Origin: Pseudobacter sp.
Lineage (GTDB): Bacteria; Bacteroidota; Bacteroidia; Chitinophagales; Chitinophagaceae
Direction: 5' to 3'
Assembly (NCBI GenBank): GCA_017849455.1
Contig: JAFIGX010000007.1
Span: forward strand, 4,208 to 68,207
DNA length: 64,000 nucleotides
In this document: positions 16,692 through 61,296 of the stretch, piece after piece
How positions within the stretch are numbered: the stretch's first letter is position 1
Layout: the number at the start of each line of letters is the position of its first letter
Notes under the pieces: model-generated
Seen by the model: the letters and a program-made list of their open reading frames with translations, nothing else
Database searches by the model: none
Told to the model about the DNA's origin: nothing
Translations under genes and position numbers: made by a program

Positions 16692-16705
16692 GTGAGCAGT
16701 GGGTA

Positions 16706-17733: not shown

Positions 17734-17739
17734 GTTCCG

Positions 17740-33942: not shown

Positions 33943-34533
33943 ATGAAAAATTTGAGTAGCGATGTGATCACTCAATTCAATATGGGAAGTACCCAGGCTT
34001 TCTCAAAAATCTACAACTACTATCACAGGCAGTTGTTCTTTTTTGCCAGGCGCCTGATCACCGATACGCAGGAAGCCGAAGATATCGTGGCGGAATGTTT
34101 CATTAAAGTATGGAACAAGCGGGGCGATTTTCAGACCCTGCAAAACGTAAAGGCTTTTTTATTCATCGCAACCCGCAATGCCTGCTTCAACTTCTTAAAG
34201 GCTTCGCAAAGCCAGCATTCATCTCATAAAGAGCTGTTTTATTTGTCCGACGGGATCGATGAATCGGCAGTATTCCAGCAGGAGATCACAGCAGAACTGC
34301 TTCAGCTTCTGTATTCCGATATCGAGAACCTACCCCCCAAGCGAAGGAAGATCGTGGAAATGATCCTGCAAGGACTTACGGATTCACAGATCGCAGAGCA
34401 ATTGAACATTACTGCGAAAACGGTCCGCAACCAGCGGGCAAATGCCATTCAATTATTGAGAGAAGCCTTCCTGAACAGGGCGACCTATTTCCTGCTGATG
34501 ATCGTGGCGTTGATCAATTTTTTCAGACAGTAA
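33943..34533 (+). CDS. ECF-type RNA polymerase sigma-70 family factor
   Basis: Region 2 (EDIVAECFIKVWNKR) and region 4 HTH (LTDSQIAEQLNITAKTVRNQ). A FecR-like gene lies downstream. Confidence 0.88.
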   Translation: MKNLSSDVITQFNMGSTQAFSKIYNYYHRQLFFFARRLITDTQEAEDIVAECFIKVWNKRGDFQTLQNVKAFLFIATRNACFNFLKASQSQHSSHKELFYLSDGIDESAVFQQEITAELLQLLYSDIENLPPKRRKIVEMILQGLTDSQIAEQLNITAKTVRNQRANAIQLLREAFLNRATYFLLMIVALINFFRQ

Positions 34534-34794
34534 CGGTAAACCGGCTGTCGCCACCCACTTATTATCATTTCAAACCATCAATCCTTCCTGGAATTCATTG
34601 GGCACGTCGAAAATTTATTGACCGCCGACATCTTTTTTTTAAACCACTCTTCAATTGTTACGGGAACATTACTTTTTTTTTATTAATCAATTAATTCACC
34701 CGCCCTGTAAAAAATCCTTAAAAATTCTTTGGGCCGATTCATAGCATTTGTTGTTTCTATAGAAATGACAGGTGATAAATAGGATTTTTGAAAC

Positions 34795-36063: not shown

Positions 36064-36426
36064 CGCACTACTCCCGAAATAATATTCAGATAAGAGAAGT
36101 CTTATTCCTATGACAGACCAGGTTTCTGGTTAAAAAGAGCTCTGAATCCCGCGCTACTATTGCATCTCTTGACCAACGATGCCATTAAGACCCGCTATCC
36201 TTTTCAAAAGGGGCTTCGCGATAACTCTTGTTATGCCATTGAGCCATTAAATCTACCTATGCGATGCCATATCCGGGTATTCTGCCCGGCCTATGGCTAT
36301 TACATCGGCAAGAACATCATCTGAAAAACTGTTGGGTATTCGTTTGTACTAAGACGTAACCCAACAATTATTTAACCCTCCGGGATTCAACATGATTTTC
36401 AATTTCCCGGATCAACCTTGACTTTT

Positions 36427-39400: not shown

Positions 39401-39858
39401 GTGCAGTTATCAACAGTTTTAACTTCAAGAATATCCAGCTTACTGCTACCTTCTATTACCAGTATGGATTCCAGGTCAATACGTCAATGATGGTCAATGA
39501 TGGAGCGAATCCATTAATGAACCAGGACAAAAGCGCACTTGACCGCTGGCAAAAACCAGGAGATATTGCCACCAATCCTAAACGATTCATATACAATTAC
39601 ACCTCAAACGGATCGCGATATATTTATAATGGCGATTTTATACGCCTGCAGGACCTTTCTGTTAGCTATGATCTTCCCAAAAAAATCGTAAACCGGCTGG
39701 GGTTGACTACACTGAAAGTATACGCGAAGGCATATAACCTGGCGATCTGGACCCACTATCCAGGCTCAGACGTTGCCAATACCAATGTTCATGGTACAAA
39801 CGGCTTTTCTTATCCAAATCAGAAATCATATTCATTAGGGTTCAATCTCAATTTCTAA
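36427..39858 (+). CDS. SusC/RagA-family TonB-dependent transporter with N-terminal STN signalling domain (transducer type)
   Basis: The STN-like segment is LQEVFKDIQKQTSYAFVYN...ASLEAVLSLCF. A CarboxypepD_reg-like region (VKGKVTDEKLNPVAKATVLVKG), a plug and a barrel follow, ending ...SLGFNLNF. The start is uncertain: TTG at 36418, ATG at 36427 or ATG at 36487. Confidence 0.9.
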   Translation: MQFNAFCEGMRALPQQPAHAMTRKQSGCIRSSTRALSRLLFSVLLMMVAFSPVSAETPEPRITLSKKNSTLQEVFKDIQKQTSYAFVYNTEMMQQTKRVTINVKDASLEAVLSLCFRDQPLTYSIVDKIIVVQKKEKVVETPERDTAQSPDFPSLMNVKGKVTDEKLNPVAKATVLVKGTRKMTATDNNGEFTIDEVAANSVLVFTCVGFTPKEIPIRGNPNISAQLKVAVGNLDETVVVAYNTTTSRANTAAVTVVKGDQIANLPNRSFDKSLQGLVPGLLVTSGTGQPGGGVANFVMRGIATASDVVYNSTIRNPLIVIDGVPVTQEGYQWASSLEETPVINPIAQLNPSDIETISILKDAAAIALYGSKASNGVILVTTKKGKAGKTVIGFRHQTDIAQRLPGKLKLANQDEYLELLYETFRNSGFGNRDSLRSELYKQFPVRIHNGDTSFYPATNWEDEIYTNRAFTVSNELSISGGNEKTLFYMNLEYTKQNGVVKKTGFDRKSLRFNLDNRPTSWLKLGLNSTLSYSIQDYASLVGGDLPYGVASLTSPLNPVRLEDGNYLWNFTTPFFAANPAAQLEFNKNRNTSYRGLTKASAEVSFLKSFKLTTSLGADFMYLETKEKSDLRLYDSYTTSVGSGRIQERNSRYANLITTNTLAYDKTFSYDHNINVLLGQEAQILTTRFLEVIGTGFKIPTNDDISNAAQKTSSGLSTKQTLISYFGQLNYAFKNKYFLSSSIRKDGSSLFGERNRFGSYWSLGGGWIASSESFMNGTSSWLDYLKFRGSLGVAGNSFVIDRYTRYDLLQVSRYLGNLAVYNGRLGNPNIRWEKTFNWDVGVEARFWKQRISFTADIYKRKTSDVIFDINLPYTSGFTRVKDNIGDIENRGIELSLSIDIIKNRDFRWNLNANWSTNKNILVKANIPEFSSVDNLQNRVGKNFNSFYLVPWAGVNPDNGNPQYLDSAGKITSDFPVGKQNERYFGKPQPDGFGAVINSFNFKNIQLTATFYYQYGFQVNTSMMVNDGANPLMNQDKSALDRWQKPGDIATNPKRFIYNYTSNGSRYIYNGDFIRLQDLSVSYDLPKKIVNRLGLTTLKVYAKAYNLAIWTHYPGSDVANTNVHGTNGFSYPNQKSYSLGFNLNF

Positions 39859-39877
39859 TCTTTTCAAGCGAATCACT

Positions 39878-41302
39878 ATGAAGCGCAATCAATATCTATT
39901 AGCCAGTATTCTGACACTATTTATCAATATTTCCTGCAAAAAAGATTTCCTTGATGTTGTTGATCCTAATACTGCCACAAAGCAGGGATATATAGTCGAT
40001 CTCAAAGCAACAGGAGAATATTTAAATGGCATATATATTACAATAGCAACTCAATTATATTCTCAGAACGGCATAACCATCTATCCTGATATTATTGCTG
40101 ATAATATTAAATTGGTAAACGCAAGTGCACAATATTTTGCTCAGCCATACTATTGGTTGCAGGTTACATCAACGACGGCGACTGGTTCAAAGAATGCAAA
40201 TGTGATCTGGTTGAATGGTTACCAGATCATCCGATCCTGTAATCTTGTTATAGAGAAAGCGGAACAATACAAAAGTCAAAATGTGGAGCAGGCAAATGAT
40301 ATGAAAGCCCAGGCATTAGCTATTAGATCTTTGATCAATTTCCTGTTGGTAAATACATTCGCTCAGCCTTATCGGTTTACAGCAGACGGGGCTCATCCAG
40401 GCATCCCATATATAGTCAGTTCGGATTGGACGGTGCCTCTCAAAGGAAGACAGACCGTTGCAGAAGTTTATGCTCATCTTGTCTCGGACCTGAAGGACGC
40501 TCTACCAATGTTCTCTTCCTCCAGGAATAGTTTATACATGAACCAAAATGCCGCAAAGGCATTACTGGCAAGAGTTTATCTATTTAAAGAAGATTATTCC
40601 AATGCAAGAATTCTGGCAAATGAAGTTTGCCAGAAAGTTCCACTCATGGGAGGAGGTGCAGGTGGCTATCCTTCCAAACTGTTTACTCCCAATGAAACGG
40701 AAGCATTATTTCAATTGCCGCCCAGTAAAACAGATTATTCTACTCAATTTATCGCAGCAAATTTTTCGCCCACTTACTACGTACAGTTCCTTCCCACCTT
40801 GGATATTACGGGGATTCTACAGGAAAACCCTTCCGATAAAAGAAATGCGTGGATTACAAATACCGGCGGAAAATGGTATATCAGTAAATTCCCTTCAGGG
40901 GTGGTGCCCGGTGTCACACCTGCAGCGGGTTCTTATTATCAAACCATCTTGAGATCATCAGAAATGTATCTCACAGCCGCAGAGTCGTATGCAAAATTAA
41001 GTATTGAGGACAGTGCCAGGATCTATTTGGATGCTATTCGGTTAAGAGCTGTTCCTGATGCAGTGCCCTCTACTGCAACAGGGACTGCATTATTAGATTC
41101 AATTTATAAAGAGCGACGAAAAGAACTGGCATTTGAGGGAATAAGAATGTTCGACTTGCTTAGATGGGGAAAAGGGGTTGATAGAACAGACGCCTGGGTC
41201 CCAACGGCCAGGAACCTCCCTTTTCCTAGTCAAAAGGCAATTGCCCCTATACCACAGAACGATATTGAAGCATCAGGCCTCACTCAAAATCCCGGGTATT
41301 AA
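39878..41302 (+). CDS. SusD/RagB-family outer-membrane lipoprotein
   Basis: Lipobox LFINISCKK. C-terminal ...ERRKELAFEGIRMFDLLRWGK. Follows the SusC-like gene by 19 nt. Confidence 0.9.
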   Translation: MKRNQYLLASILTLFINISCKKDFLDVVDPNTATKQGYIVDLKATGEYLNGIYITIATQLYSQNGITIYPDIIADNIKLVNASAQYFAQPYYWLQVTSTTATGSKNANVIWLNGYQIIRSCNLVIEKAEQYKSQNVEQANDMKAQALAIRSLINFLLVNTFAQPYRFTADGAHPGIPYIVSSDWTVPLKGRQTVAEVYAHLVSDLKDALPMFSSSRNSLYMNQNAAKALLARVYLFKEDYSNARILANEVCQKVPLMGGGAGGYPSKLFTPNETEALFQLPPSKTDYSTQFIAANFSPTYYVQFLPTLDITGILQENPSDKRNAWITNTGGKWYISKFPSGVVPGVTPAAGSYYQTILRSSEMYLTAAESYAKLSIEDSARIYLDAIRLRAVPDAVPSTATGTALLDSIYKERRKELAFEGIRMFDLLRWGKGVDRTDAWVPTARNLPFPSQKAIAPIPQNDIEASGLTQNPGY

Positions 41303-41317
41303 CAAAAAAACATAAAT

Positions 41318-43903
41318 ATGAAATACAAATTAGCGGCAATTCTATTTTTGGCATTATCATTTCAAATATGCTACTCCCAGAGACAAGTAGGCCTCAGTCA
41401 TCAAAGGATTGTCATTGAATCTGTGATCCCTGAAAGTTTTCATACCTGGATGGCCGATCATCCTAAAAATGGTATTCCGTTGGAGTCAGCTAATCCAGAT
41501 TATATTACCCCGGATCCATCCTGGACTGTTAATGATGGAAAAGTTAAAGGTAATAAAGTAACGTGGATACTTTACTCAAACAATCCTGTAGCGATCCGGA
41601 TCCCTTTCCTGATCCAATCGGCATTTGTCTGTCCAGGAGATAGCATCTCTCTTTACTTTGAAGGTAAAGAGCCTGTATATTCCGGCAAGGGCAGCGAAGG
41701 GTTGAATCTGCAACGCAAACTAGAGCTTTATCACAAGAACTTACCGGAGCCAACCCCAAAGGGCTATGTTGTCCTGACATCTGTGGAAGATTACCTAAAA
41801 TGGGATAAATTCCTGGATGAACAGTCGGCATTTATCATTCCTCTTCTTGATTCTTATAAGAAAAGAATATCTCCATCCCTTTATGACCTTATTAAAAAGA
41901 ACGAATTAAAATATATAGAACATCAGCGAGCTGAAAGCCTTCTTTCTTTGAACAACCGCCGTGTGCTTTACAAAAATTCCGGGATAACACCCAACGACAT
42001 GATCACTCTTGCTGATACTAAACTGGATAAATCCCAGGCAGTATGGCTTAGAAATCAATCTGAACATTTTGGAGATCATGACGTCTGGTATTTCTTTCAA
42101 TATAACCGGATCCAGATTGCAAAAAAAGTAGGTTTCGATTTCACCAATGACAGTTTAGACAGGCCTGAGGTTTCAAGGTTGCTTTTTTACCAGACCCTGA
42201 AACAGCGTTATAAAGGATTACTCCGGGAAAGGCTTTTGCAATATTTGATTGCTGAAAGAGTAATCAAGAAAATGGGATACATGCATCCATTGACCTCAAA
42301 ACTCTTAAAAGATTATTACAGTCAGCCCGGCTTCCCTGAATATAAACAATGGATGCGAAATTTTGAGATCAAGGCCAGGAAACTGTATAACTATAATTCA
42401 AGTACAGGCGGGAATCTGGCGCCGGACTTTCAACTGGTCGATACAAAGGGAAACGTTTTTACCAAGTCAGATCTCAAAGGGAAAATAGTACTTCTTGATT
42501 TTTGGTTTTCGGGCTGCAAAGGTTGTGTGGATATGGCCCCGCAGCTCCGTAAGATTGAGGAAGAGTTCAAAAATGATCCTTCTATTGCTTTTGTGAGCAT
42601 ATCTACAGACCAGGACAAAGATCGCTGGCTTTTGAGCATAGCACAGAAAAAATATACTTCCGGCGGCGGGATCAATTTGTATACCGGAGGTCAGGGAATG
42701 AGGCATCAAATGCTAAAAGATTACAACATAACATCCTACCCAGAGTTGTATTTGCTGAATACTGAGGGAGAAATCGCTCAATATCCCTTACCGAATCCGA
42801 GAGGAGATAACGGGCTTGCATTGATAAATCTTATAAAGAAAAAACGTGCAGAGCTGAATGATGGGCCCTATATTCTGTATGAAAAGACTGACACAATGTC
42901 CATAAACTATATAAACCCGTTAACAGGAAGAATTACTGAGGAAAAACAAATAGCTCCGTTGACGCTGTCTATCGGAACAGATAAATACCCAGAAACTTTT
43001 TCTGTACAGCTAAAAACAGAATTACAAAATGAACCTTCAATTTATAATGAGCCTTCAAAGCAACTGGTAGTTTCAGATATTGAAGGCAACTTTGAGGCCC
43101 TCCGGAAATTATTGCAGGCCAGTAAAGTAATTGATTCGAAATATAACTGGATATTCGGCAATGGGCACCTGGTATTTGTAGGCGACATGTTTGATCGGGG
43201 CCAACAGGTAACAGAGTGTCTATGGCTTATTTATTCCCTTGAAGAAAAAGCCAAAAAAGCTGGAGGCTATATCCATTTCATTTTAGGGAACCATGAGATA
43301 CTTAACCTTTGTGGAGATTTTCGTTATACACAAAAAAAATATACACAAAACGCCAAATTACTTAACGAGGATTATAAATCCTTATATGGCTGTAATAGTG
43401 AATTAGGCCGATGGTTAAGAACCAAAAACATTATGGAAAAAATCGGAAATATTTTATACACACATGGAGGGATTTCCAGAGAAGTAAATAACCTATCCCT
43501 CACACTGCCTGAGATCAATGCGCTAATACGCCCTTATTATGCGGATAGAGATAATTTCAAGCAAAATAAAAAAAATCCGGAGTTGAATGTATTGTTTAAT
43601 AGTCAGACCTCTCCCTTCTGGTATAGAGGATACTATAAGAACGAAAACCAAATTCCAATCATAGACAGCACTCTGCAGAAATTTGGTGTCAGGCGGGTTA
43701 TTACAGGACACACAATAATTGCAGATACAATTAGCCTGCATCATAATGGCAAAGTGATCGATATCGATACCCATCATGCAGACGGCAAATCCGAAGCTTT
43801 GTTGATTGAGGATGAAAATTTTTATCGGATAACACCTACAGGAGAAAAAGTGTTGCTGTTAAAGAATGATAAGCTTTTTGCCATAAGGGGGCGGACAAAT
43901 TAA
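41318..43903 (+). CDS. Exported three-part fusion: unknown N-terminal domain (~360 aa) + TlpA-like thioredoxin fold + PPP-type (calcineurin-like) metallophosphoesterase
   Basis: Signal peptide MKYKLAAILFLALSFQICYSQ. Thioredoxin motif VLLDFWFSGCKGCVDMAP (CKGC at 42515-42526). Phosphoesterase motifs VVSDIEGNF, VGDMFDRG, LGNHE and GHT from ~43060 onward. Confidence 0.78.
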   Translation: MKYKLAAILFLALSFQICYSQRQVGLSHQRIVIESVIPESFHTWMADHPKNGIPLESANPDYITPDPSWTVNDGKVKGNKVTWILYSNNPVAIRIPFLIQSAFVCPGDSISLYFEGKEPVYSGKGSEGLNLQRKLELYHKNLPEPTPKGYVVLTSVEDYLKWDKFLDEQSAFIIPLLDSYKKRISPSLYDLIKKNELKYIEHQRAESLLSLNNRRVLYKNSGITPNDMITLADTKLDKSQAVWLRNQSEHFGDHDVWYFFQYNRIQIAKKVGFDFTNDSLDRPEVSRLLFYQTLKQRYKGLLRERLLQYLIAERVIKKMGYMHPLTSKLLKDYYSQPGFPEYKQWMRNFEIKARKLYNYNSSTGGNLAPDFQLVDTKGNVFTKSDLKGKIVLLDFWFSGCKGCVDMAPQLRKIEEEFKNDPSIAFVSISTDQDKDRWLLSIAQKKYTSGGGINLYTGGQGMRHQMLKDYNITSYPELYLLNTEGEIAQYPLPNPRGDNGLALINLIKKKRAELNDGPYILYEKTDTMSINYINPLTGRITEEKQIAPLTLSIGTDKYPETFSVQLKTELQNEPSIYNEPSKQLVVSDIEGNFEALRKLLQASKVIDSKYNWIFGNGHLVFVGDMFDRGQQVTECLWLIYSLEEKAKKAGGYIHFILGNHEILNLCGDFRYTQKKYTQNAKLLNEDYKSLYGCNSELGRWLRTKNIMEKIGNILYTHGGISREVNNLSLTLPEINALIRPYYADRDNFKQNKKNPELNVLFNSQTSPFWYRGYYKNENQIPIIDSTLQKFGVRRVITGHTIIADTISLHHNGKVIDIDTHHADGKSEALLIEDENFYRITPTGEKVLLLKNDKLFAIRGRTN

Positions 43904-44134
43904 TTCAGATATTCAGAGTTCCTGAGATTCCCTGAAATCGCCAAATCCCGGTTGCCTTTGGTAGCCGGGATTTTCAATTTCTTTTTCTTAATGAACAGGT
44001 CAACCACCTGATTTCTATTGATCAAAATGTAATATTCCGCCGCAGTTATAATGCAGCCGACATTACTAATTTTAATGTTATAACTATCAGGCCAGTGGTT
44101 ATAAATATTTTCTAACATTAAAAATTTAGTAATC

Positions 44135-44467
44135 ATGAAAAATTTATCAGTCCAAAAACTGTCCATTCTGGGTCTAGTACTGATGGGTGCTTCAGCTGTT
44201 ACTGCTGCAGTAATGCCTAAAGCAAAACAAACTATTCCTCCAGGTGAATTGAAGTTCATTTCAGCCAGAGCTGGTGTCAATCAATGGACATGTAAACCAG
44301 TTGTTTCTGTATTTAATTGTGATTATACAGCAACTGATGGTGTGAAAAGCTTTACATCTGCTGCTCCTGCCACTACCAGTCTTAACGGACCAACAACTGG
44401 AGTAGACGGTCAAAATACAGGCCTCATACCTGATGCAGCACATAATAACATTAAGAGATCAAGCTAG
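44135..44467 (+). CDS. Small (110 aa) signal-peptide-bearing two-Cys, Ser/Thr-rich protein, paralog A
   Basis: ATG start. The Sec-type N-terminus is MKNLSVQKLSILGLVLMGASA|V. It aligns gap-free over nearly its whole length with the ORF at 47097-47432. Conserved blocks are TCK, NCDYT.TD and SLN.PTTG.DG.NTGL. Confidence 0.6.
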   Translation: MKNLSVQKLSILGLVLMGASAVTAAVMPKAKQTIPPGELKFISARAGVNQWTCKPVVSVFNCDYTATDGVKSFTSAAPATTSLNGPTTGVDGQNTGLIPDAAHNNIKRSS

Positions 44468-44486
44468 TCGTTGCATTTCTTGGCAT

Positions 44487-44531
44487 CAATGGAATAACCT
44501 TTCAAATTCAATCTGAAAAGTTATTCCATTG
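44487..44531 (+). terminator. Hairpin directly downstream of small-protein gene A
   Basis: caatggaataac-(21 nt)-gttattccattg is a perfect 12-bp stem starting 20 nt after the stop codon. There is no strong T-tract, so it could be a partial terminator, an attenuator or a processing site. Confidence 0.4.
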
Positions 44532-44590
44532 AACTTATAAACGATATTTTCATTCGCAAGCAGCCCATTCGTCAGTCTAAAGAAAATCCT

Positions 44591-45688
44591 ATGCGATATA
44601 TATTATTCTTATCCCTGGCAGGAATAGCATTGGCCAGTCAAATCAATTGTTCAATGAAGGTCAAGGAAAGAAATTCCATCAGCACTAGAGGCCCAAGCAT
44701 TATCATTGAGAGTCGACTGCCTGATAATTATGCAAGGTATATAGCAAATCCTTACGATGAAGATATTACAGAACTCGGCTGGATGCCAGTAAATAATATC
44801 GCACTTCGGACTGATTGGAGAGTAGAAAAAGAATTTATTAGGGACAATAAATTAAAATGGATTATATATTCCGATAAGCCAGTGATATCCCATTCGGCTC
44901 TCCTTGGGTACGGGGTCTTCATAAATCCGGGAGATAGCGTTTGCATTATTCCAGAGAAGGATGGTTATAAATATTCTGGCAAAGGGGTTGATGGACTAGA
45001 ACTGCAAGCCAGGATTAGCAAACTCCAAGGTGGAATAAAGAAGCCATCACAAGATCATGATCAATTCGTTAATCTTGACAATTATATGGAATGGAAAAGG
45101 TACCTGGACAAGCAATTGGAATTAATTCTACCTGCCATCGACTCTTACGAAAGGAAAATACCGTCTGCTATATTCAATCTGATAAAAACCCATGCTATCA
45201 ATAGAATTGAAAAGGAACGAACGGAAGTATTCATGAGCTTTATAAATTACAAGACCAGGTATAAGGCAGAAGACCTAACCTTATTTGATTATGTAGCCAT
45301 TTTTGATTCAACCATGAACGGTCCAGCGTCACAGTGGTTAAGATCATACTCAGACTATGAAGGTGATCCATGGTTTTTTTACCAGTATACAAGGATCAAG
45401 GTTTGGAAGAAATACAATTTTGATTTCAGCCATGACAGCTTGGATGATAATAATAAAAGAGTGGATTATTACAGATCCATTAAAGAAGACTTCAAAGGAT
45501 TGCTTAGAGAAAAATTGCTCCAATATACAATTGCACAAGATATAATCAAGGGGTTGCGGTTTGCCCATCCTAAGACTGATAGTATCCTGAACGACTATTA
45601 TAAACAGCCTGGCTTTCCAGAATATAAACAATGGATGAGGAGCTATGAGGATAGCATGAGAATTAAATTTGCAAGCTTAAAAAAATAA
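44591..45688 (+). CDS. Exported protein homologous to the N-terminal domain of the 861-aa fusion protein
   Basis: It has a signal peptide. It is colinear with residues ~30-365 of the 41318-43903 product. Example pairs: YSGKGVDGLELQ vs YSGKGSEGLNLQ, and LLREKLLQY...DYYKQPGFPEYKQWMR vs LLRERLLQY...DYYSQPGFPEYKQWMR. Confidence 0.65.
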   Translation: MRYILFLSLAGIALASQINCSMKVKERNSISTRGPSIIIESRLPDNYARYIANPYDEDITELGWMPVNNIALRTDWRVEKEFIRDNKLKWIIYSDKPVISHSALLGYGVFINPGDSVCIIPEKDGYKYSGKGVDGLELQARISKLQGGIKKPSQDHDQFVNLDNYMEWKRYLDKQLELILPAIDSYERKIPSAIFNLIKTHAINRIEKERTEVFMSFINYKTRYKAEDLTLFDYVAIFDSTMNGPASQWLRSYSDYEGDPWFFYQYTRIKVWKKYNFDFSHDSLDDNNKRVDYYRSIKEDFKGLLREKLLQYTIAQDIIKGLRFAHPKTDSILNDYYKQPGFPEYKQWMRSYEDSMRIKFASLKK

Positions 45689-45701
45689 ACTTTTCAAAGT
45701 A

Positions 45702-46940
45702 ATGCAACCAAGCAGCGTATTCATGAAGGAAGTTATGAAAATTTGGCGAGGTCCAAGAAAAATAGGATGCCCCTACTTACCTAACGTCGTATTACTGGCG
45801 TTAATATTGGCAGCAAATTTCGGCTGCAAGAATAATGCAGAAACCTCTCCCAGCAAATACAATTATATTAAACCTCAATATGACCAGGTCGGATTGAATT
45901 CATCAGCCGATACTATGACCTTCGCACTGGGAGAAAGCACGTACACCGATATTAAATCATTTAACCTCTTTGTTCAAAATGACACAGAATATATATCATT
46001 CTACGATCAGCGTTCGCAGACAATAAATATCTATAATTTTCAATCTCAGCAACAGGTAAAAAAAATAAAACTGAAGAGAACATTCTCTAGTGCTCAATTA
46101 TTTAAAACCACTGTTTTTACCCGGAATTTCGACAGTATTTTAGTCAACAACCAAGCTACATTTTACCAATTAGATTCTAAAGGAAAGATCAATAAAACCA
46201 TCGCCTTCCTTAAAAATCCTCCATTATCCTGGGCAGTTTTCCAAAGTACCAGTCTTCCGGTTTTTAAAGGCAGCCAGATTTATGCTCTTGTACGACCTTA
46301 CGTTAAAGAGCGGTCTCTAAAAGCATTAAAGGAATGGAGGGTATTATACAGGTTCGATTTGCAAAATGAAAAAGCAAACCTCATTTATAATTTACCTGAG
46401 ATATACCAGAAATACATCTATGGCTTCCATTTCCTGGACTACAATTATTGTTATAATGATCATGGCAATTTCGTATTCAGTTTTCCTGCAGATTCCAATA
46501 TCTATGAAACGAATCTCGAAAATTATCATATTGCCTATTATGGTAGAAGCCAGTTTCAAAATGGCCCTATTCAACCAGCCTCTGAACAGGATATATCAAA
46601 GAGTGATGATGAGTATAGAAATTTCTTAAAAAAAGATTCCTATGGCCCCATTTACTTCGATCCTTACATGAAGCGATACCTTCGGGTGTCAAGGTCCGGG
46701 ATCAGAAATACAGATCTTGAAGCAAAAAACTGGCGACAACAGGAGCGCCTTATCATTTTTGATGATGGATTTAAGATCATCGGGGAATCGAAAGTAGACG
46801 ATGAAATTTTACTCAATACAATATTTTTTACCAGGGATGGTAACATATTCGCGAGAACCAGATCTAATGATGAATATGCGCTCCACTTTGTACGCATGAA
46901 GTATGAAGAAAATATCAAGCTTCCCCTTACAAAGAAATAA
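45702..46940 (+). CDS. Lipoprotein of unknown function (possibly DUF4221 / 6-bladed beta-propeller-like)
   Basis: Lipobox LILAANFGCKNN. Asn/Tyr/Phe-rich sequence of about 400 aa. The family assignment is tentative. The start could be 45702 or 45735. Confidence 0.45.
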   Translation: MQPSSVFMKEVMKIWRGPRKIGCPYLPNVVLLALILAANFGCKNNAETSPSKYNYIKPQYDQVGLNSSADTMTFALGESTYTDIKSFNLFVQNDTEYISFYDQRSQTINIYNFQSQQQVKKIKLKRTFSSAQLFKTTVFTRNFDSILVNNQATFYQLDSKGKINKTIAFLKNPPLSWAVFQSTSLPVFKGSQIYALVRPYVKERSLKALKEWRVLYRFDLQNEKANLIYNLPEIYQKYIYGFHFLDYNYCYNDHGNFVFSFPADSNIYETNLENYHIAYYGRSQFQNGPIQPASEQDISKSDDEYRNFLKKDSYGPIYFDPYMKRYLRVSRSGIRNTDLEAKNWRQQERLIIFDDGFKIIGESKVDDEILLNTIFFTRDGNIFARTRSNDEYALHFVRMKYEENIKLPLTKK

Positions 46941-47096
46941 ACCAAAGTTCCTAATACTATCTTAAAGCAGCTCGCCATCTAAATTGTTCATAAAGATAAT
47001 ATTATACTGCGGCCTGAGTGCAGGTGTCTTGACTATTTTAGTACCTAAAAGTGGTCGTGGCTATTAATACTTTACAAAATTCTTAAACTAAATACC

Positions 47097-47432
47097 GTGA
47101 AATACTTATATGGCCAGAAATTATCCCTCTTAGGGTTGGTTTTAATGGGCGCTTCCTCCATTACGGCGGTAGTAGTTCCTACAAAAAAATTTTCATTTAG
47201 TCAATATGGACAATTAATGCTCATTTCTAAAAGAGGAGGAATAATACAATTTACCTGCAAAGCAGCATTTAGTTTAATAAACTGCGATTATACAATAACA
47301 GATAACGCATTGTATAGCTGGACTTCCTATGTTGCTGCAACATCAAGTCTCAATGCACCAACTACAGGTATTGACGGTGACAATACAGGGCTACGCGACG
47401 CGAATGGTGATGGGATTCGTACATCAAGCTAG
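47097..47432 (+). CDS. Small (111 aa) signal-peptide-bearing two-Cys, Ser/Thr-rich protein, paralog B
   Basis: The GTG start is supported by alignment to paralog A (MKYLYGQKLSLLGLVLMGASS|I). It shares the same conserved blocks: TCK, NCDYT.TD, SLN.PTTG.DG.NTGL and a terminal SS. Confidence 0.6.
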   Translation: MKYLYGQKLSLLGLVLMGASSITAVVVPTKKFSFSQYGQLMLISKRGGIIQFTCKAAFSLINCDYTITDNALYSWTSYVAATSSLNAPTTGIDGDNTGLRDANGDGIRTSS

Positions 47433-47489
47433 GCGGCTTAAGAACAAATCCATATTCAACTTATAATGATAATTCATAACTACTCAGAT

Positions 47490-48014
47490 ATGAGAACAAA
47501 AACAGTTTTGTGGGTTCTCTTACTAGCTTCTGCCTGTGGCAAACCCAAACAAAATAGTATTGAATTGATCACCATTCCCGAAAAGCAATCGTCTTTATTC
47601 CAGGATTTAGTGGCGATTACGGGAAAAACGATACCTGATACACTTCTTTCCGATTCATTGGCTTTCCTAATATTACCTGTACAGGCAAGTTGCCCTGCCT
47701 GTCGAAAAAAAACCATTGATAGCATTGCTAAACATCAGAGCGACCTGAACGATAACCATTATATCATCGTTTCAGCCAATGGCGGGCGCAGGGCTATCCG
47801 GGGATATTTCCAGGAACAGAACCATGAACTTCCTGATATCCCTGGTAAATTTTTTATGGACAGTCTAAACCTCGCATATCAGCGTAACCTTTATGTGAAT
47901 AAACCTACCATTTACTTTACTTATAACAGAAAAGTCTACAAGAAAGTAGCTGCAATCCCGGCAACTGTACGTGACGATCTTAGAGAATTTTTTTCAGGGT
48001 ACAGAGATAAATAG
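47490..48014 (+). CDS. Thioredoxin-fold-like lipoprotein with CPAC motif
   Basis: Lipobox LLLASACGK from the Met at 47490. LPVQASCPACRKK (CxxC). Its position corresponds to the thioredoxin segment of the 861-aa fusion. Confidence 0.5.
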   Translation: MRTKTVLWVLLLASACGKPKQNSIELITIPEKQSSLFQDLVAITGKTIPDTLLSDSLAFLILPVQASCPACRKKTIDSIAKHQSDLNDNHYIIVSANGGRRAIRGYFQEQNHELPDIPGKFFMDSLNLAYQRNLYVNKPTIYFTYNRKVYKKVAAIPATVRDDLREFFSGYRDK

Positions 48015-48035
48015 TCCATATCCTGGCAGGAATAT

Positions 48036-48950
48036 ATGTATAAAAAAATAAACATAGCACTCAGCATTCCCAATGCAGATAGACCTGACAGATATTTTGC
48101 TTTCCGGTTACAGCAATGCTTGTCCAATGAACCAGCACTATATGAGATGCCCAGCAGATTATTCGTGGTCTCTGACATTGAAGGAAACTTCCAACCTTTC
48201 TGCCATATATTGATGAGATGGAAGATCATCGATAAATATTTTCAATGGATATATGAGGATGGGCACCTTGTTGTACTTGGCGATTGTTTTGATCGGGGGG
48301 AGCAAGTTACTGAATGCCTGTGGCTGATCTATTCACTGGAAGAAGGCGCCAGAAGAGCAGGTGGGCGTGTTCATTTTATTCTGGGCAATCATGAAATCAT
48401 GAACCTTAATGGCGATTGGCGGTATGTTCATCCCAAGTACGCATACAATACTTCTTCCTTCCACCTTTCCCCAACTGCATTATATGATGCTAACAGTGAG
48501 TTATGGCGATGGCTCTGTACAAAAAATATTGTAGAAAAAATAGGCAATGTACTTTTTGTTCATGGGGGAATTGCCCCTGCACTTCTGGAATATAACCTGT
48601 CTGTACCGGAGATCAATGAAGTAGCCCGGCCGTGGTTCACCAAAGCCAACGGATCGTTCACGGATCAGTTATTGCACCTTCTTTTTAGTGGTGAGGATTC
48701 TCCTTTCTGGTATCGAGGTTATTATAATGGATTGATTACAGAAGAAATTATAGATGTTATCCTGGCAAGATTTGAAGTTACTACAATAATCACAGGTCAT
48801 ACCATGGTGGAGCAGGTACGTAGTTATTTCAATGGTAAAGTAATTAATGTGAATACAGATCATGCCAGTGGAAATTCAGAAGGGCTGGTTATTACAAAAA
48901 ATCAGCACTTTTACCGGGCGATGGATAAGAAGAGAGAAAGAATCAAATAG
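48036..48950 (+). CDS. PPP-type (calcineurin/Shelph-like) metallophosphoesterase, stand-alone paralog of the fusion protein C-terminus
   Basis: Motifs VVSDIEGNF, LGDCFDRGEQVTECLWLIYSLEE, ILGNHE and ITGHT. It is clearly colinear with residues ~570-861 of the 41318-43903 product. No signal peptide is visible. Confidence 0.8.
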   Translation: MYKKINIALSIPNADRPDRYFAFRLQQCLSNEPALYEMPSRLFVVSDIEGNFQPFCHILMRWKIIDKYFQWIYEDGHLVVLGDCFDRGEQVTECLWLIYSLEEGARRAGGRVHFILGNHEIMNLNGDWRYVHPKYAYNTSSFHLSPTALYDANSELWRWLCTKNIVEKIGNVLFVHGGIAPALLEYNLSVPEINEVARPWFTKANGSFTDQLLHLLFSGEDSPFWYRGYYNGLITEEIIDVILARFEVTTIITGHTMVEQVRSYFNGKVINVNTDHASGNSEGLVITKNQHFYRAMDKKRERIK

Positions 48951-48956
48951 TAAAAT

Positions 48957-49796
48957 TCAAAATTGAATAGGCTCCTCGGGCATTCCTTCAGTTGATGTGA
49001 TACTTAGAACATTTGCATTGCTCCAATCGCATAATACTAATTCATAGCGGGTCAGTACCTGCATCAATTCATCATCCGCGCTCTCAAGCCTGGTAATGCA
49101 TAATGAGCCAATATAGCCACTTCTCAGAATGCCATAGTATATATAGTTTTCCGTTCGGATCGAAAAACCATTTTCTACATACCCATGGCCTGCTAAAAAG
49201 ACATTACCCGGTTCCGAGGCACCAACTAATTGACAAAAAAATCCAAAGGGTAAGTCGAGGGAGTTCTTTTCCGATCTTGAAAACTGCTCTTGATAACCCA
49301 GTAGCGCATCCTGTTGGTTAACCAAAATCGATCTAATGGCTCCGATCTCACTTTCAATCTCTGGTAATGAAGTCAATGGCAAAAACTCCAGGTTTCGCCA
49401 GTCGGCCACATTTAATTCTACAGTACGATCCCCGTACATAGGGTTAACGCATATTCCAGGTAGTTCACAGATAGTTGGCGAGCTATGGCGGAACTGAATT
49501 GGGTCTGCGAAGGCAGCATTCTGAACATGCAGAGTAAGCTTTTTACGGTATTGAAATTCATCTGCCAACACAGGATTTGCTTTTAATACCCGCCACTTCG
49601 TATTATCCAGTTCAATGATAGTAGGCTTGTCAAAGCCCGAAGGCAGGATATCGGCCATCAACTTATACTTGCCTATTATATTGTTAGTAACGGCATCAAC
49701 CAGTATTACTGTTATTTTCTTAGGAAATAACATTATTGCAGAGCCAATAATTTTTGCATAATTCATAATACCATTATTATTTAGCGTACCAAGCAT
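48957..49796 (-). CDS. Hypothetical protein (279 aa), translationally abutting the kinase-LanC gene
   Basis: Long ORF whose start codon (49796) directly abuts the stop of the upstream gene (49797). No motif is recognised. Confidence 0.55.
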   Translation of the reverse strand: MLGTLNNNGIMNYAKIIGSAIMLFPKKITVILVDAVTNNIIGKYKLMADILPSGFDKPTIIELDNTKWRVLKANPVLADEFQYRKKLTLHVQNAAFADPIQFRHSSPTICELPGICVNPMYGDRTVELNVADWRNLEFLPLTSLPEIESEIGAIRSILVNQQDALLGYQEQFSRSEKNSLDLPFGFFCQLVGASEPGNVFLAGHGYVENGFSIRTENYIYYGILRSGYIGSLCITRLESADDELMQVLTRYELVLCDWSNANVLSITSTEGMPEEPIQF

Positions 49797-51953
49797 TTAT
49801 ATCAGCATCGGAAATCCTATTACATCCGGGTAACAATACCGCAGCAAAAAGTGTAGTACACCACTGTTTCCTGTCATAAAACTCGCTGTCGGATGACGTT
49901 CATGTTCTACAAGCCAATAAGGGCCGGATTTCTCATCTTGCTTTTGCAATTGCATAATTATCTGGGATATCCAACCTGCCCTATGCAGCCATTCCTCATC
50001 CTTAAAGACTCGCCATGCTTCCAGATATGCCTCTCCAACACCACTAAGTCCATAACTCTGCCCAAGATTGTTATCAATGATCTCCCCAGGGATGTTTTTC
50101 AAGGCGCTAACTGCATATTGTTTATAAACCGGTTCATTAGTAATTTGCCAAGCCTTCATAAATGAAAGGGCAATGCCGGAAGCCCCGCCTGTCCACCAAT
50201 ATGAAAGTTCTTTACCTTTTGATGAATTCCACCAGATGCCTCCATTTTTGTGAATAGCTTTTTTCATCAACCACTGCATCCCCCGAATTGCAGATTTTGT
50301 ACTGGTCTCATCATTATAGGAATGCCCATACTCCAGTAAAAAGTAAAGGATGCCAGCCATCCCCTCCACAAACCCCCGTGTTATTTTGTTCATCTTCCTT
50401 TTAGTAATTTTTTGTTGATAATTCCCGAAAATCCAATAACCATCATACTCCTGTTTTTCCAATAAGAAACGTACATACTGTTCTATTCGCTCTTGTATTT
50501 TCTGGGAACTGCAGAGGGGTTTTGCAATAAGATTGGCAATGCCTTGTCCGGCTACACCAGACAAAATACCCAGGGAATCACTTGTTCTCGCCAATAATTG
50601 ATCAATCCAATCTAAATATTCAGGTGAAGGTTCTACCAGTTTGTTCCGGATCGCCGTTGCCAATGAAGCTGCAATGCCATCAGATCCAAAATGCAAACCG
50701 GTATTGGCAGATTCTATTCTATTAATATATTTTTCCCGAATTCGTTCCAGACCTAACTGAACAAAGGGTAGTGCAGTTTGCACATCCAATCCAACATATT
50801 TAGCCTGGCTTATCATATAAATTATCCCACTATCCCCACGATTAAAGCTGGCATACCACATTTTACTAAGCTTATGTTTATCCATATCTGGGGTGGGCTT
50901 CATGTTTTCTGCAAACCAGCCTTTTTCCGGATCAGCCATTAAAGGAGATATCATCGTTCTGATGGATTGTTGAACGATTGACAAAATATCCTCCCTATCA
51001 TAAAATACCGAAGATGACGAATGCCTGGAAACGTCATACCTGATATCAGTTTTGTATTGTTGGAGCGTCCGCCTGACCACCTTTGCAGAAGGCCTGACGG
51101 TCGCATCCGGTTGCATACACCGTATTATCAACTCCCCTATCTCCTGGTCCGTGACCAGGAAATGAACTTTCCGCGATAATGATTCCAATGATTCATTCGT
51201 GAACTTGAGTGGCGATATCCCCGTCCACACCTGCAGCATAATTGCCCCCAATGCATAAATATCCTCCGCGGTAGTCGGCGTTTCAGTAACCTCTTGCTGG
51301 GGCGACATATACCCATAAGTCCCCAACTGAAATGCCGGCGTTGGAAATTGTTCTTTCACGGAATAACACATTTCCATATCGATCAATGCCACCTTTCCGC
51401 CAGGAGTGATCATGTAATTATTAGGAGTAGCATCCCGATGCACTACCTGTTGACTATGGAGAATATCCAGAATGTCCGCTATCTGTATCAGGTAATCCAA
51501 CACTTTCATCCCTTTCTTACCCCCGGTGATGATCGATTGTCTCAATTCCTTCCTCCACTCAGAACATATTTTCTGCAATGGCTTTCCCCGTATATGTTCG
51601 ATCACCAGGTAATAATTCCCATTTTCTTCAAAAGTGCCTAACAACCGGGGCATCCGCACTTTATCCTGTAAGAGCTCATGCAATTGTTTCTGCCATTTCA
51701 ATCTGTCGATAATATCACGCCCCTGCTTGTCTTTCGTATCACCATAAGTTCCTTCCTTGATCACACAAAATCCAAAATTGGTAAGACTTTTGATATACAG
51801 GCACTTCACTACATCATTCTTCTGACTTTCCTTATAACTTTTGATGATAATGTAATTGTACCCTACGCGCTTACCACTTTTCTTTTCCACCTTACCTTTT
51901 ATCTCCTGCTCGACAGGGGCATCGCTGACATGTGTTACGGTGGCAATTTTCAT
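49797..51953 (-). CDS. Ser/Thr protein kinase fused to a LanC-like (lanthionine-synthetase C-like) alpha-toroid domain; no lyase domain
   Basis: The kinase motifs are CVIKEG (LanKC-type Lys region), VVHRDATPNNYMI (HRD...N), LIDMEM and GTYGYMSPQQ. The C-terminal half has repeated LanC-type Gly-rich helix starts: GVAGQGIANL, GMAGILYFLLE, GGASGIALSF, GLSGVGEAYLE and GNSGVLHFLL. Confidence 0.85.
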   Translation of the reverse strand: MKIATVTHVSDAPVEQEIKGKVEKKSGKRVGYNYIIIKSYKESQKNDVVKCLYIKSLTNFGFCVIKEGTYGDTKDKQGRDIIDRLKWQKQLHELLQDKVRMPRLLGTFEENGNYYLVIEHIRGKPLQKICSEWRKELRQSIITGGKKGMKVLDYLIQIADILDILHSQQVVHRDATPNNYMITPGGKVALIDMEMCYSVKEQFPTPAFQLGTYGYMSPQQEVTETPTTAEDIYALGAIMLQVWTGISPLKFTNESLESLSRKVHFLVTDQEIGELIIRCMQPDATVRPSAKVVRRTLQQYKTDIRYDVSRHSSSSVFYDREDILSIVQQSIRTMISPLMADPEKGWFAENMKPTPDMDKHKLSKMWYASFNRGDSGIIYMISQAKYVGLDVQTALPFVQLGLERIREKYINRIESANTGLHFGSDGIAASLATAIRNKLVEPSPEYLDWIDQLLARTSDSLGILSGVAGQGIANLIAKPLCSSQKIQERIEQYVRFLLEKQEYDGYWIFGNYQQKITKRKMNKITRGFVEGMAGILYFLLEYGHSYNDETSTKSAIRGMQWLMKKAIHKNGGIWWNSSKGKELSYWWTGGASGIALSFMKAWQITNEPVYKQYAVSALKNIPGEIIDNNLGQSYGLSGVGEAYLEAWRVFKDEEWLHRAGWISQIIMQLQKQDEKSGPYWLVEHERHPTASFMTGNSGVLHFLLRYCYPDVIGFPMLI

Positions 51954-52035
51954 ATACGAAGTTTACTCACCAATTTACATTCCCTTACTGCATCCTTATT
52001 GCAGTCCTTTGTTACGATTAGATGATCTCAGGTTA

Positions 52036-52269
52036 TCAGTTTTTTCGTTGAAAAGAAATATTGAAACTCCCCTCCTGGTCATAATAATAGCTCTGCCTGT
52101 AGCTGTTGAATTTTATGGGAGCACCGAATTCTTTCATCAAATTCAGGTATTCATACACACTTCTTTCTGAAATACCCAGCTTATTGGCCAGCTCTGTCGG
52201 TGTGCCCGTGGCTTTGATGCGTATAAGCTGGTCAATTCGTTCCAGACGTTGAAATATTTCTCTTTGCAT
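52036..52269 (-). CDS. Small helix-turn-helix protein (HTH_11/DeoR-N-like)
   Basis: 77 aa with ...GTPTELANKLGISERSVYEYLNLMKEFG... It overlaps the 3' end of the MauE/DoxX gene by 38 nt. Confidence 0.6.
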   Translation of the reverse strand: MQREIFQRLERIDQLIRIKATGTPTELANKLGISERSVYEYLNLMKEFGAPIKFNSYRQSYYYDQEGSFNISFQRKN

Positions 52270-52699
52270 AAGATAGGTTTTTATTGATTCGGCGATACTT
52301 TGTTTCCAGGATAATGGCGATGCTGCTCAATACAACAAAGAAACTGTTGAATACGATATGAACTCCCCACGACATCTCTTCCAGTACACCCCCGCAGGAG
52401 CATGGGATATCCGATCCCGATAGTAACATGGCTGCTATATAAACGGTAAAAAGGAACATCAACACGAAGGAAGCATAGAGACCTGCCAGCCGGGTCACCG
52501 GCAGCAGGAGCATTATTGCAATACAGATCTCGGTGGCAGGTACCAGCCAGGCCAGGATGCCTGCAAATGGGGCTATATAAGGAGACTCGCTGAGACCAAA
52601 CTGAAAATTGGCGTAATCGGCCAGTTTGGCCCAGGCTGCATACACGAACAATAGGATATGAAGCAGGGAGGCGATCCCCACAAAGATTTTCCTGGTCAT
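52232..52699 (-). CDS. MauE/DoxX-family redox-associated membrane protein
   Basis: Four predicted TM helices and the characteristic SDIPCSCGG motif in the third or fourth helix region. Confidence 0.7.
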   Translation of the reverse strand: MTRKIFVGIASLLHILLFVYAAWAKLADYANFQFGLSESPYIAPFAGILAWLVPATEICIAIMLLLPVTRLAGLYASFVLMFLFTVYIAAMLLSGSDIPCSCGGVLEEMSWGVHIVFNSFFVVLSSIAIILETKYRRINKNLSYAKRNISTSGTN

Positions 52700-53171
52700 A
52701 GCTAAATTTTCAGAATGTTGAAGAGTTGTTATCTAAGGATACGATGCTATAATTTTTAACTGCCGGATAAATGTTCATCGTCCGCTGTCTGTTGTCTTTC
52801 ATTAACAGACAAACGAAGTATGGCTACCGGAACAGGCCATGCAGAGGGATGCATGTTGATCATTTATTGAGGGTACTGGTTTCTGCGGAGGCATAACCAG
52901 TGAATAACAATATAAATTTCCACCCGGATCGACCCTGTTTAGTTATGAAATCGGGAGTAAATTCCATACGAAAATGGCAAATATTGAAAACTTAACATTG
53001 ACCTAAGGGTTTGTCTCTACCAATCCCTAGAACATTTCAGATAGATATTTTGTCGATCGCATATTGGATTTTCCAGTTCGTTCCTCATTATCCCTCCTGG
53101 AATTATTCACACCCTGTGATTAAGTTAATTTGACTAAACCTCCTTGTCGGTTTACGTTTGCAGTCGCTCTT

Positions 53172-53392
53172 TTACCGCAATTGTGCTGGTTCCTGCGCCG
53201 GTCAGCCGGCCAGGATTAAAAGGGAACCATGTGAAAATCATGGGCTGTTGCGCAACTGTAAGTTTTACACCCCACTTATTACAGCTGAACTTCAGGCCAC
53301 TGTGCCCCTGGTAAATGGCATGGGAAGGCGTTCAGCCGTCCGCCGCAAGGCGGGTAAAACAAGTCAGGATACCTGCCGGTACGATCTGTGCT
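53172..53392 (+). ncRNA. Cobalamin (adenosylcobalamin) riboswitch upstream of nrdB-nrdA
   Basis: The conserved blocks occur in the canonical order. They are ggttcc, ttaaaagggaacc, gtgaaaatc, gctgttgcgcaactgtaag, ggccactg, gggaaggc and the B12 box aagtcaggatacctgcc (53361-53377). The element ends about 130 nt upstream of the nrdB ATG. Confidence 0.85.
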
Positions 53393-53522
53393 AAAACCTT
53401 CGCATTAAAGGTAAATGCATCACTTTAAAATGTCAGTTTGGCTTTATTCCCCATAAAGCCCAGGCATATTATCGCTGTTCATTTCCCCATGCGCGATCCA
53501 ATGAATATTAAAAAGTGATAGT

Positions 53523-61254: not shown

Positions 61255-61296
61255 GCAAATGGCCACAAAAGGCAACAAATGGCCACAAATTCCAAG

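Follow-up and report, generated by a model that had tools for sequence, protein, structure and literature searches.

What does a relative of the lanthipeptide synthetases do when it has no lyase and stands beside phosphatases, thiol proteins and a TonB-dependent transporter? The question is raised by a gene block in a stretch of 64,000 nucleotides (the window) from Pseudobacter sp., family Chitinophagaceae (assembly GCA_017849455.1, contig JAFIGX010000007.1, positions 4,208 to 68,207 of the forward strand). Positions given below are those of the window unless a locus is named. Lanthipeptide synthetases are defined by dehydration, then cyclisation. The central gene of the block encodes a 718-aa protein in which a Ser/Thr kinase and a LanC-like domain are retained and the lyase is absent. 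Genes of both strands around it form one module that is conserved in soil Chitinophagaceae. The block (about 33943-52699) is tentatively regarded as the descendant of a class III-type lanthipeptide system, now free of dehydration, which would mature small secreted proteins by phosphorylation and be coupled to TonB-dependent uptake or sensing.

Kinase-LanC protein

The 718-aa protein is encoded at 49797-51953 on the minus strand. It matches Pkinase (residues 98-292, 68 bits) and LANC_like (residues 370-712, 91 bits); a match to APH is below the cut-off. The best curated score is that with the class IV LanL model NF038150 (268 bits, E 2e-79, cut-off 650), aligned over model positions 188-843 of 851. 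With the class III LanKC model NF038151, 151.6 bits are reached against a cut-off of 575, and the alignment begins at position 248. The lyase domain is absent, because the LanL alignment begins only at model position 188. RamC_N is not matched in the 718-aa protein by Pfam; the same model does match a paralogue in a related locus (L006). No lyase homologue is found in the whole 64-kb window by tblastn with three lyase domains as queries.

The kinase residues K66, H172-R173-D174, N179 and D192 are invariant across 23 family sequences. In the LanC-like domain the residues aligned with the Cys, Cys-Cys and His motifs of PDB 8CAR are instead T/G, S-Y and E, without conservation across the family. 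By alignment, this replacement of the zinc ligands corresponds to the class III pattern. The class III enzyme ThurKC has a cyclase domain without zinc ligands that is nevertheless required for dehydration activity (PMC10604976). Once excised, its kinase or lyase-kinase has no activity unless the cyclase domain is present, and the pieces carrying lyase-kinase and cyclase can complement one another in trans (PMC10604976). The need for a zinc-less cyclase in ThurKC gives a reason for the LanC-like domain being kept here.

The family has more than 350 members. All named members belong to the Chitinophagaceae, and the best annotation is 'protein kinase/lanthionine synthetase C family protein'. No open reading frame (ORF) for a short lanthipeptide precursor is present around the kinase-LanC gene or in the 820-bp spacer towards nrdB.

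A stand-alone LanC-like ORF occurs in three Chitinophaga loci (L008, L009, L010; about 8500-9630 of the locus, plus strand). It lies just upstream of the gene for a helix-turn-helix (HTH) protein, in the place of the MauE gene, and shares 24-26% identity with the 718-aa protein over residues ~231-674 of the latter.

Gene order in the Chitinophagaceae

A scan of one genome per species yielded 31 Chitinophagaceae loci (L001-L031). They encode homologues of the kinase-LanC protein, except that L028 and L030 have relatives with all three domains. Among the genera are Niastella, Chitinophaga, Paraflavitalea, Longitalea, Flavihumibacter, Terrimonas and Pseudoflavitalea. Neighbours were counted in those 26 lyase-less loci (43-63% identity) for which 10 kb downstream was available. 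The HTH gene is present in all 26. The signal-less phosphatase, the CxxC lipoprotein and the DUF4221 lipoprotein are present in 25 each, the thioredoxin-phosphatase fusion and SusD in 24 each, the 279-aa protein in 16, the 365-aa protein in 11 and MauE in 10. Besides the window, 28 loci in all show the same arrangement, among them the metagenomic loci L055 and L056, which carry the whole module from the sigma factor to MauE.

The outer flanks differ. Among the 27 loci with that flank (L028 included), nrdB adjoins in only four; the block has therefore moved as one. The second plus-strand unit is inverted in L007 and L010, where it follows the kinase-LanC gene in the same direction, still beside the genes for the fusion, SusD and SusC. 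That the two strands form one system had been proposed in an earlier note from proximity only, with lack of synteny in other genomes named as the result that would speak against it. The kinase-LanC and plus-strand homologues are syntenic in about 25 of 26 loci from several genera, and their adjacency survives the inversion; the proximity is therefore functional, not accidental. Both strands constitute one conserved Chitinophagaceae module.

In L029 (chromosome of Paraflavitalea speifideaquila) all module genes and nrdB are split into several frames, which looks like the result of assembly indel errors rather than pseudogenisation.

Small two-cysteine proteins

Two small proteins with a signal-like leader and a variable, Ser/Thr-rich two-Cys core are encoded on the plus strand. 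The first has 110 aa (44135-44467) and the second 111 aa (47097-47432). They had been described as paralogues, and rightly so: they are 55% identical and share leader and Cys pattern. Residues 10-28 (S-LGLVLMGASAVTAA--P) are essentially invariant. The remainder is hypervariable except for the two Cys and one Gly. In 28 sequences derived from the loci, identity is 0.60 in the leader and 0.22 in the core, and Ser and Thr make up 25% of the core as against 12.6% in neighbouring proteins. There are one to three copies per locus.

A profile search of 1.84 billion representatives gave 338 clusters at 50% identity. Among the matches listed, all 150 are 85-154 aa in length. Cys statistics were taken from the 134 top matches in which the leader motif was found. 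Exactly two Cys, 6-13 residues apart, occur in 123 of the 134. The residue before the first Cys is Thr or Ser in 122 of these 123, and [ND]-x-[ST] follows the second Cys in 57 of 123 (5.6% expected). The core skeleton reads G-x-L, (T/S)-C, 6-13 residues, C-(N/D/T/H)-x-(T/S). In 97 of 134 a further motif, N-[TS]-[ST], stands close to the C-terminus. Such N-x-S/T-like motifs could serve as sites of the kinase or of glycosylation.

The leader is probably a Sec signal peptide, with cleavage predicted between ASA and VTAA. Strong conservation of the leader over the core and multiple copies near the enzyme are traits of precursors of RiPPs (peptides made on the ribosome and modified after translation), but the leader looks like an ordinary Sec signal peptide. 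Judged from the alignments, the pattern fits a leader-guided substrate or a diversifying secreted ligand, not an ordinary periplasmic protein. The small proteins are plausible substrates of the kinase-LanC enzyme, because in L028, L048 and L034 two to seven tandem genes of this kind stand directly after a synthetase-type gene.

Lyase-bearing and kinase-only relatives

A metagenome scan with a two-sequence lyase-kinase alignment gave one further relevant locus, L048. The synthetases of L028 and L048 (31% identity) are complete lyase-kinase-cyclase proteins and cover LanL model positions 17-842. Their genes are preceded by genes for MauE and a thioredoxin-type lipoprotein, and are followed by seven (L028) or three (L048) tandem genes for proteins of ~100 aa with signal-like N-termini and several Cys. 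These tandem genes converge on thioredoxin-SusD-SusC. The thioredoxin-type lipoprotein gene directly follows MauE in L028, L030 and L048.

L034 and L032 encode a lyase-like and kinase protein without cyclase, together with small Cys proteins, a thioredoxin protein and SusCD; MauE is found in L034 only. L006 and L009 have an extra RamC_N and Pkinase gene within the plus-strand unit. The His of the GWIIHLS motif, which we take to be the catalytic His of this lyase family, is kept only in L028, L030 and L048; it is lost in the RamC_N copies of L006, L009, L032 and L034.

All these relatives share small exported Cys proteins, proteins of the thioredoxin type and SusCD, and most also have MauE. The HTH protein, both phosphatases and DUF4221 are confined to the lyase-less type; PPP and HTH genes do not occur in L028, L032, L034 or L048. 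Compared in this way, the kinase is the constant element, whereas lyase and cyclase are lost repeatedly.

Large polytopic membrane proteins are encoded upstream of MauE in the lyase-bearing relatives (L028 5342-8452, L048 4316-9016, L034 7810-9462). In L028 and L048 one of them is fused to a domain of the flavin adenine dinucleotide/amine-oxidase type. They may be glycosyltransferase-like and would then hint at glycosylation of the Ser/Thr-rich small proteins in lyase-bearing systems. L048 also has an ORF of 426 aa between the thioredoxin gene and SusD (16509-17789, minus strand), which looks like a mobile-element insertion.

Fusion protein, phosphatases and thiol proteins

The plus-strand fusion (41318-43903, 861 aa) is predicted to be exported. 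It consists of an N-domain (residues 1-354), a TlpA-like thioredoxin domain (365-489) and a PPP phosphatase domain (559-844). Metallophos is matched at 583-799, and Thioredoxin_8 and AhpC-TSA are above the cut-off. The thioredoxin domain has the CxxC motif WFSGCKGC, matches PDB 2LRN (E 3e-15) and is of the TlpA/ResA-like type. The phosphatase domain matches PDB 2ZBM/1V73 (E 3e-65). All PPP motifs are kept in 24 of 24 fusion orthologues, and the thioredoxin CxxC in most of the 24.

Two further plus-strand proteins resemble parts of the fusion. A lipoprotein or secreted protein of 365 aa (44591-45688; gene present in 11 of the 26 related loci) is a stand-alone copy of the N-domain, 36% identical to fusion residues 8-354 (E 7e-74). 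Neither the N-domain nor the 365-aa protein matches a family in Pfam (12 members) or in a profile comparison with PDB. The 304-aa protein (48036-48950) is a signal-less Shewanella-type PPP phosphatase (Pfam Metallophos; PDB 2Z72, E 2e-59), 49% identical to fusion residues 548-837 (E 3e-94). A signal peptide is absent from the window copy and from every orthologue. The metal motifs are intact in the window copy; the full set is present in a minority of genomes, and most orthologues are partly or wholly degenerate.

The CxxC lipoprotein (47490-48014, plus strand) has the motif CPAC, and CxxC is kept in 26 of 26. It has no Pfam match, and BLASTP against the fusion thioredoxin domain is negative. 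Profile comparisons are weak: hhalign against the fusion thioredoxin gives E 0.053 with CxxC in register, and PDB thioredoxins give E ~0.4. A thioredoxin fold is plausible from these alignments. A lipoprotein of 412 aa (45702-46940, plus strand) belongs to DUF4221 (PF13970, 93 bits).

Several earlier assignments of these genes are thereby made more exact. The phosphoesterases are indeed of the PPP type, and the PDB matches refine them to the Shewanella type. The proposed duplication of the whole functional set holds for the 365-aa and 304-aa proteins; it is not borne out for the CPAC lipoprotein, which shows no BLASTP similarity to the fusion thioredoxin and whose thioredoxin fold, asserted earlier, is not confirmed by the searches above. 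The 'extra lipoprotein' is the DUF4221 protein. The parts list of kinase, LanC-like domain, phosphatases, thiol-disulfide enzymes and small proteins agrees with the domain searches.

Signalling and uptake genes

The plus-strand genes are headed by an extracytoplasmic function (ECF) sigma factor of 196 aa (33943-34533; Pfam Sigma70_r2, Sigma70_r4_2, Sigma70_ECF), which also heads the module in L056. It is followed by a FecR-type anti-sigma factor of 422 aa (34795-36063; FecR, FecR_C), found in L055 and L056 as well. Next come a SusC-like TonB-dependent transporter with an N-terminal STN domain (36418-39858; STN, CarbopepD_reg_2, Plug, TonB_dep_Rec_b-barrel) and a SusD-like lipoprotein of 474 aa (39878-41302; SusD-like_3, SusD_RagB). 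SusC orthologues occur in related loci whose flanks extend that far. ECF sigma factor, FecR and the STN domain on the transporter make up the elements of sigma/anti-sigma signalling through a TonB-dependent transducer, and the set is repeated in L055 and L056.

Other minus-strand genes

The HTH protein has 77 aa (52036-52269; Pfam HTH_11, 28 bits). In each of the 26 loci its gene is the next one upstream of the kinase-LanC gene (49-88% identity). Beyond it lies the gene for a membrane protein of 155 aa with a CSCGG motif (52232-52699), which has several hydrophobic segments and is a member of the MauE family (PF07291, 110.7 bits, cut-off 27). It had been named MauE/DoxX; the MauE part of that name stands, and the DoxX match is below the threshold.

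The 279-aa protein (48957-49796; 269 aa from the second Met) is encoded directly downstream of the kinase-LanC gene. Its family is confined to relatives of this locus, and all members are annotated as hypothetical. The AlphaFold2 model is confident, with a predicted local distance difference test score (pLDDT) of 85. Foldseek finds no fold match in PDB (best E 0.086, template modelling score <0.2). The family has an invariant Lys and a near-invariant His. As a candidate for the missing lyase the protein receives no support from this Foldseek comparison, by which lyase activity is neither shown nor excluded.

In L055 the genes for the phosphatase and the 279-aa homologue are separated by an extra gene, which encodes a Lys-rich protein of 111 aa (14242-14577, minus strand). 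This protein looks DNA-binding, is unrelated to the small two-Cys proteins and is absent from the window.

Extent, composition and transcription units

The G + C content is 0.398 at 41318-52699, 0.512 in ppsA, 0.495 in nrdBA and 0.448 in the whole window. The earlier note had described the block as AT-rich against its flanks, which these figures bear out, and every ORF that it listed is present with the coordinates and length it gave. Its start at 41318 was too narrow: the ECF sigma, FecR and SusC/SusD genes upstream were omitted, a part that is the best-conserved partner of all. The conserved gene unit, of which the ECF sigma gene is the first, spans about 33943-52699, ~19 kb.

A strong terminator-like hairpin with a 14-bp stem (43943-43973, plus strand) between the fusion gene and the first small-protein gene suggests two plus-strand transcription units. 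Unit 1 probably runs from the sigma factor through the 861-aa fusion, and unit 2 from the 110-aa protein through the 304-aa phosphatase. On the minus strand, neighbouring genes overlap or almost touch, as would suit an operon. Between the stop codons of the convergent genes for the 304-aa and 279-aa proteins there are 6 bp (48951-48956). No terminator was detected there, and the transcripts of both strands therefore probably overlap. A promoter scan of a kind ill-suited to Bacteroidota promoters gave matches at the level of chance (35 against 30.9 expected).

A cobalamin riboswitch (Rfam RF00174, 87.9 bits; 53170-53394, plus strand) lies upstream of nrdB and explains why the spacer that separates nrdB from the MauE gene is long and GC-rich. 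It is the right-hand edge of the accessory block. Farther on, a tRNA gene (Rfam, 68 bits; 61182-61255, plus strand) opens a second AT-rich stretch (61-64 kb, GC 0.35-0.37), which may be another accessory insertion.

Proposed function and alternatives

The linkage of the genes, the identity of their domains, the conservation of motifs and a kinship to systems that have a lyase and tandem small-protein genes are the observations on which the favoured reading is built. Substrate identity, phosphorylation without elimination, the compartments and the ligand of SusCD are inferred. The 718-aa enzyme would keep an active Ser/Thr kinase and no lyase, with the zinc-less LanC-like domain probably serving as a structural and substrate-guiding scaffold. 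It would recognise the 110- and 111-aa proteins and phosphorylate Ser/Thr of their cores prior to export. The small proteins would leave the cytoplasm by their signal-like leader. MauE, the CxxC lipoprotein and the fusion thioredoxin domain may then act on the single Cys-x(6-13)-Cys pair, and the PPP domain of the fusion may strip the phosphates by hydrolysis, not elimination. The signal-less 304-aa paralogue would act or bind in the cytoplasm. STN-SusC/SusD, FecR and the ECF sigma factor would take up or sense the product or a ligand carried by it, and control the plus-strand genes. The small HTH protein would control, or respond to, the kinase operon. Since the fusion phosphoesterase is predicted to be exported and the kinase to be cytoplasmic, a simple one-compartment pathway is unlikely.

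Several points weigh against this reading, which is held as tentative. If the leader is a Sec signal, a cytoplasmic kinase has a short window before export. A cycle of phosphorylation and hydrolysis has no obvious purpose. The MauE gene adjoins in only 10 of 26 loci, and the gene for the 279-aa protein in 16 of 26. In many genomes the catalytic motifs of the stand-alone PPP copy are degenerate. Only four informative lyase-bearing loci, against 28 lyase-less ones, underlie the contrast between the two types. The AlphaFold2 model of the 110-aa protein has no confident fold (pLDDT 48) and is uninformative. Finally, the HTH protein and a cytoplasmic PPP are equally compatible with a purely regulatory kinase.

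The last point leads to the alternative that survives best, which is judged improbable while keeping real weight. The kinase-LanC protein would be a repurposed sensor kinase in the cytoplasm, whose toroid binds a ligand and which phosphorylates the HTH protein or another regulator. The 304-aa PPP would be its cognate phosphatase or pseudophosphatase, the pair would tune the SusCD/thioredoxin/phosphatase locus, and the small proteins would be mere exported accessories. The HTH protein is the most constant neighbour (26 of 26) and the best conserved (up to 88% identity); HTH and PPP genes occur only where the lyase is lost; the 304-aa family is signal-less and often degenerate; and the LanC domain has no catalytic or zinc residues. 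However, the locus already holds a dedicated chain of ECF sigma factor, anti-sigma factor and STN-SusC. In the lyase-bearing relatives, which have no HTH gene, tandem small-protein genes come directly after the synthetase gene, as in synthetase-precursor operons, and in L007 and L010 a small-protein gene directly follows the kinase-LanC gene. The extreme asymmetry between leader and core of the small proteins is left unexplained.

Dehydration and cyclisation of the small proteins to lanthionine or labionin, with elimination performed by the 279-aa protein, by a RamC_N-kinase paralogue or by a lyase elsewhere in the genome, is a rather unlikely alternative. It could draw on the extra RamC_N and Pkinase genes of L006 and L009, on the complementation in trans of the ThurKC pieces (PMC10604976) and on the Thr or Ser before the first Cys (122 of 123). 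Points in favour of the 279-aa protein are its translational adjacency, its family-specific nature, its confident fold, its invariant Lys and its near-invariant His. On the other side, the window holds no lyase homologue, most loci have no RamC_N gene, and the RamC_N copies of L006, L009, L032 and L034 are without the presumed catalytic His. The 279-aa protein is unlike any PDB structure and absent from 10 of 26 loci. The small proteins have only two Cys, at a disulfide-like spacing, and disulfide chemistry is also suggested by MauE and by the conservation of the exported CxxC proteins. Were the phosphate eliminated, phosphatases of such strict conservation would be senseless.

Two unrelated neighbours, namely a SusCD locus that scavenges nutrients with the help of a thiol reductase and a phosphatase in the periplasm (e.g. 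for phosphorylated or disulfide-bonded substrates) and an independent kinase operon, would suit the opposite strands, the separate regulators (ECF sigma factor and HTH protein) and the fact that kinase-free SusCD loci with TlpA-like proteins are common in Bacteroidota, but are very improbable given adjacency in about 25 of 26 loci from several genera with differing outer flanks, its persistence through inversion, and the Trx-SusD-SusC genes that also adjoin the distant L028, L032, L034 and L048.

The phosphorylation-based reading may be extended to a pherotype circuit, a doubtful proposal. The small proteins would be self-made, strain-specific extracellular signals or recognition tags, phosphorylated in the cytoplasm by a synthetase reduced to a leader-guided kinase, exported, oxidised and dephosphorylated outside the cell's cytoplasm by the fusion and recaptured by the cognate SusC/SusD, whereupon STN would fire the anti-sigma/ECF switch. 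If true, such a circuit would be made of RiPP and nutrient-uptake parts, with reversible phosphorylation in place of dehydration.

In evolutionary terms, the kinase-LanC family has kept the kinase and the LanC-like scaffold and dropped the lyase and the zinc site. Its gains are the phosphatases, the small HTH protein and an obligatory link to a TonB-dependent transporter that comes with sigma/anti-sigma signalling. If phosphorylation-based maturation is true, RiPP machinery can be put to a new use, to phosphorylate secreted proteins reversibly, and the abundant soil-Bacteroidota SusCD loci that have thioredoxins instead of glycan enzymes would receive a first function. The module also offers defined candidate substrates for the orphan annotation 'protein kinase/lanthionine synthetase C family protein'. 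New here is the combination, in an unreported way, of RiPP, redox, phosphatase and TonB-signalling parts in a large and tightly conserved family.

Comparison with known systems

No description of this architecture was found in the literature that could be searched. The claim of the earlier note that lanthipeptide classes I-V are not matched agrees with the present comparison, in which the definitions of classes III, IV and V do not fit.

Class III. The likeness to LanKC enzymes (e.g. ThurKC, PDB 8SAO) lies in the Ser/Thr kinase with its catalytic residues and the C-terminal LanC-like domain without zinc ligands. Distant relatives from the same bacterial family keep the RamC_N lyase, followed by tandem precursor-like small-protein genes. 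The 718-aa protein differs in having no lyase domain (RamC_N) and a LanKC score far below the cut-off. A short precursor with helical leader and Ser/Ser/Cys motif is not found nearby. The candidate substrates are instead of ~100 aa, have a signal-like leader and, by inspection, are without an evident Ser-x-x-Ser-x-x-x-Cys motif. Neither a protease nor an ABC exporter is encoded in the locus; in their place stand SusCD, an ECF sigma factor, thioredoxins and phosphatases.

Class IV. The 718-aa protein covers the kinase and cyclase parts of LanL (NF038150), whereas model positions 1-187 (lyase) and the zinc-ligand Cys/His are absent and the score is below the cut-off of that model.

Class V. The definition by LanK, LanY and LanX, with an APH-type kinase and a HopA1-like lyase on separate proteins, does not fit, as the kinase is of the Pkinase type with APH below the cut-off, and the 279-aa neighbour is without a PDB fold match.

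Class VI. The nearest precedent in the literature is class VI, reported from Streptococcus only, with a LanKC-like kinase in which lyase and cyclase are truncated and with very short peptides (PMC10676316, PMC12328550). Judged by these review descriptions, the present enzyme would differ: its lyase is wholly absent, its LanC-like domain is of full length and its host belongs to the Bacteroidota.

Shewanella-type phosphatases. Both PPP copies align end to end with the cold-active protein-tyrosine phosphatase (psychrophilic phosphatase I) of Shewanella (PDB 1V73, 2Z72, 2ZBM; 'Shelph' PPP), and the GDxxDRG, GNHE, HGG and GHT motifs are present. Motif I is SDIEG here instead of SDVHG (His to Glu), and is kept in this form in 24 of 24 fusions. 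One copy sits behind a thioredoxin domain and an N-domain; the stand-alone copy has no signal peptide and is often degenerate.

Methylamine dehydrogenase maturation. As with MauE/MauD, a MauE protein has exported proteins of the CxxC or thioredoxin type and a small exported Cys protein in its neighbourhood. In contrast, there are no mau genes and no amine dehydrogenase here, and the role of MauE is suggested by family membership only.

Trans-envelope signalling of polysaccharide utilisation loci. All four components (ECF sigma factor, FecR, STN transducer and SusD) are present with their defining domains. Unlike such loci, the block has no carbohydrate-active enzymes. Its cargo consists of thiol oxidoreductases, phosphatases, a DUF4221 lipoprotein and hypervariable small proteins, and it is always paired with a relative of the lanthipeptide synthetases.

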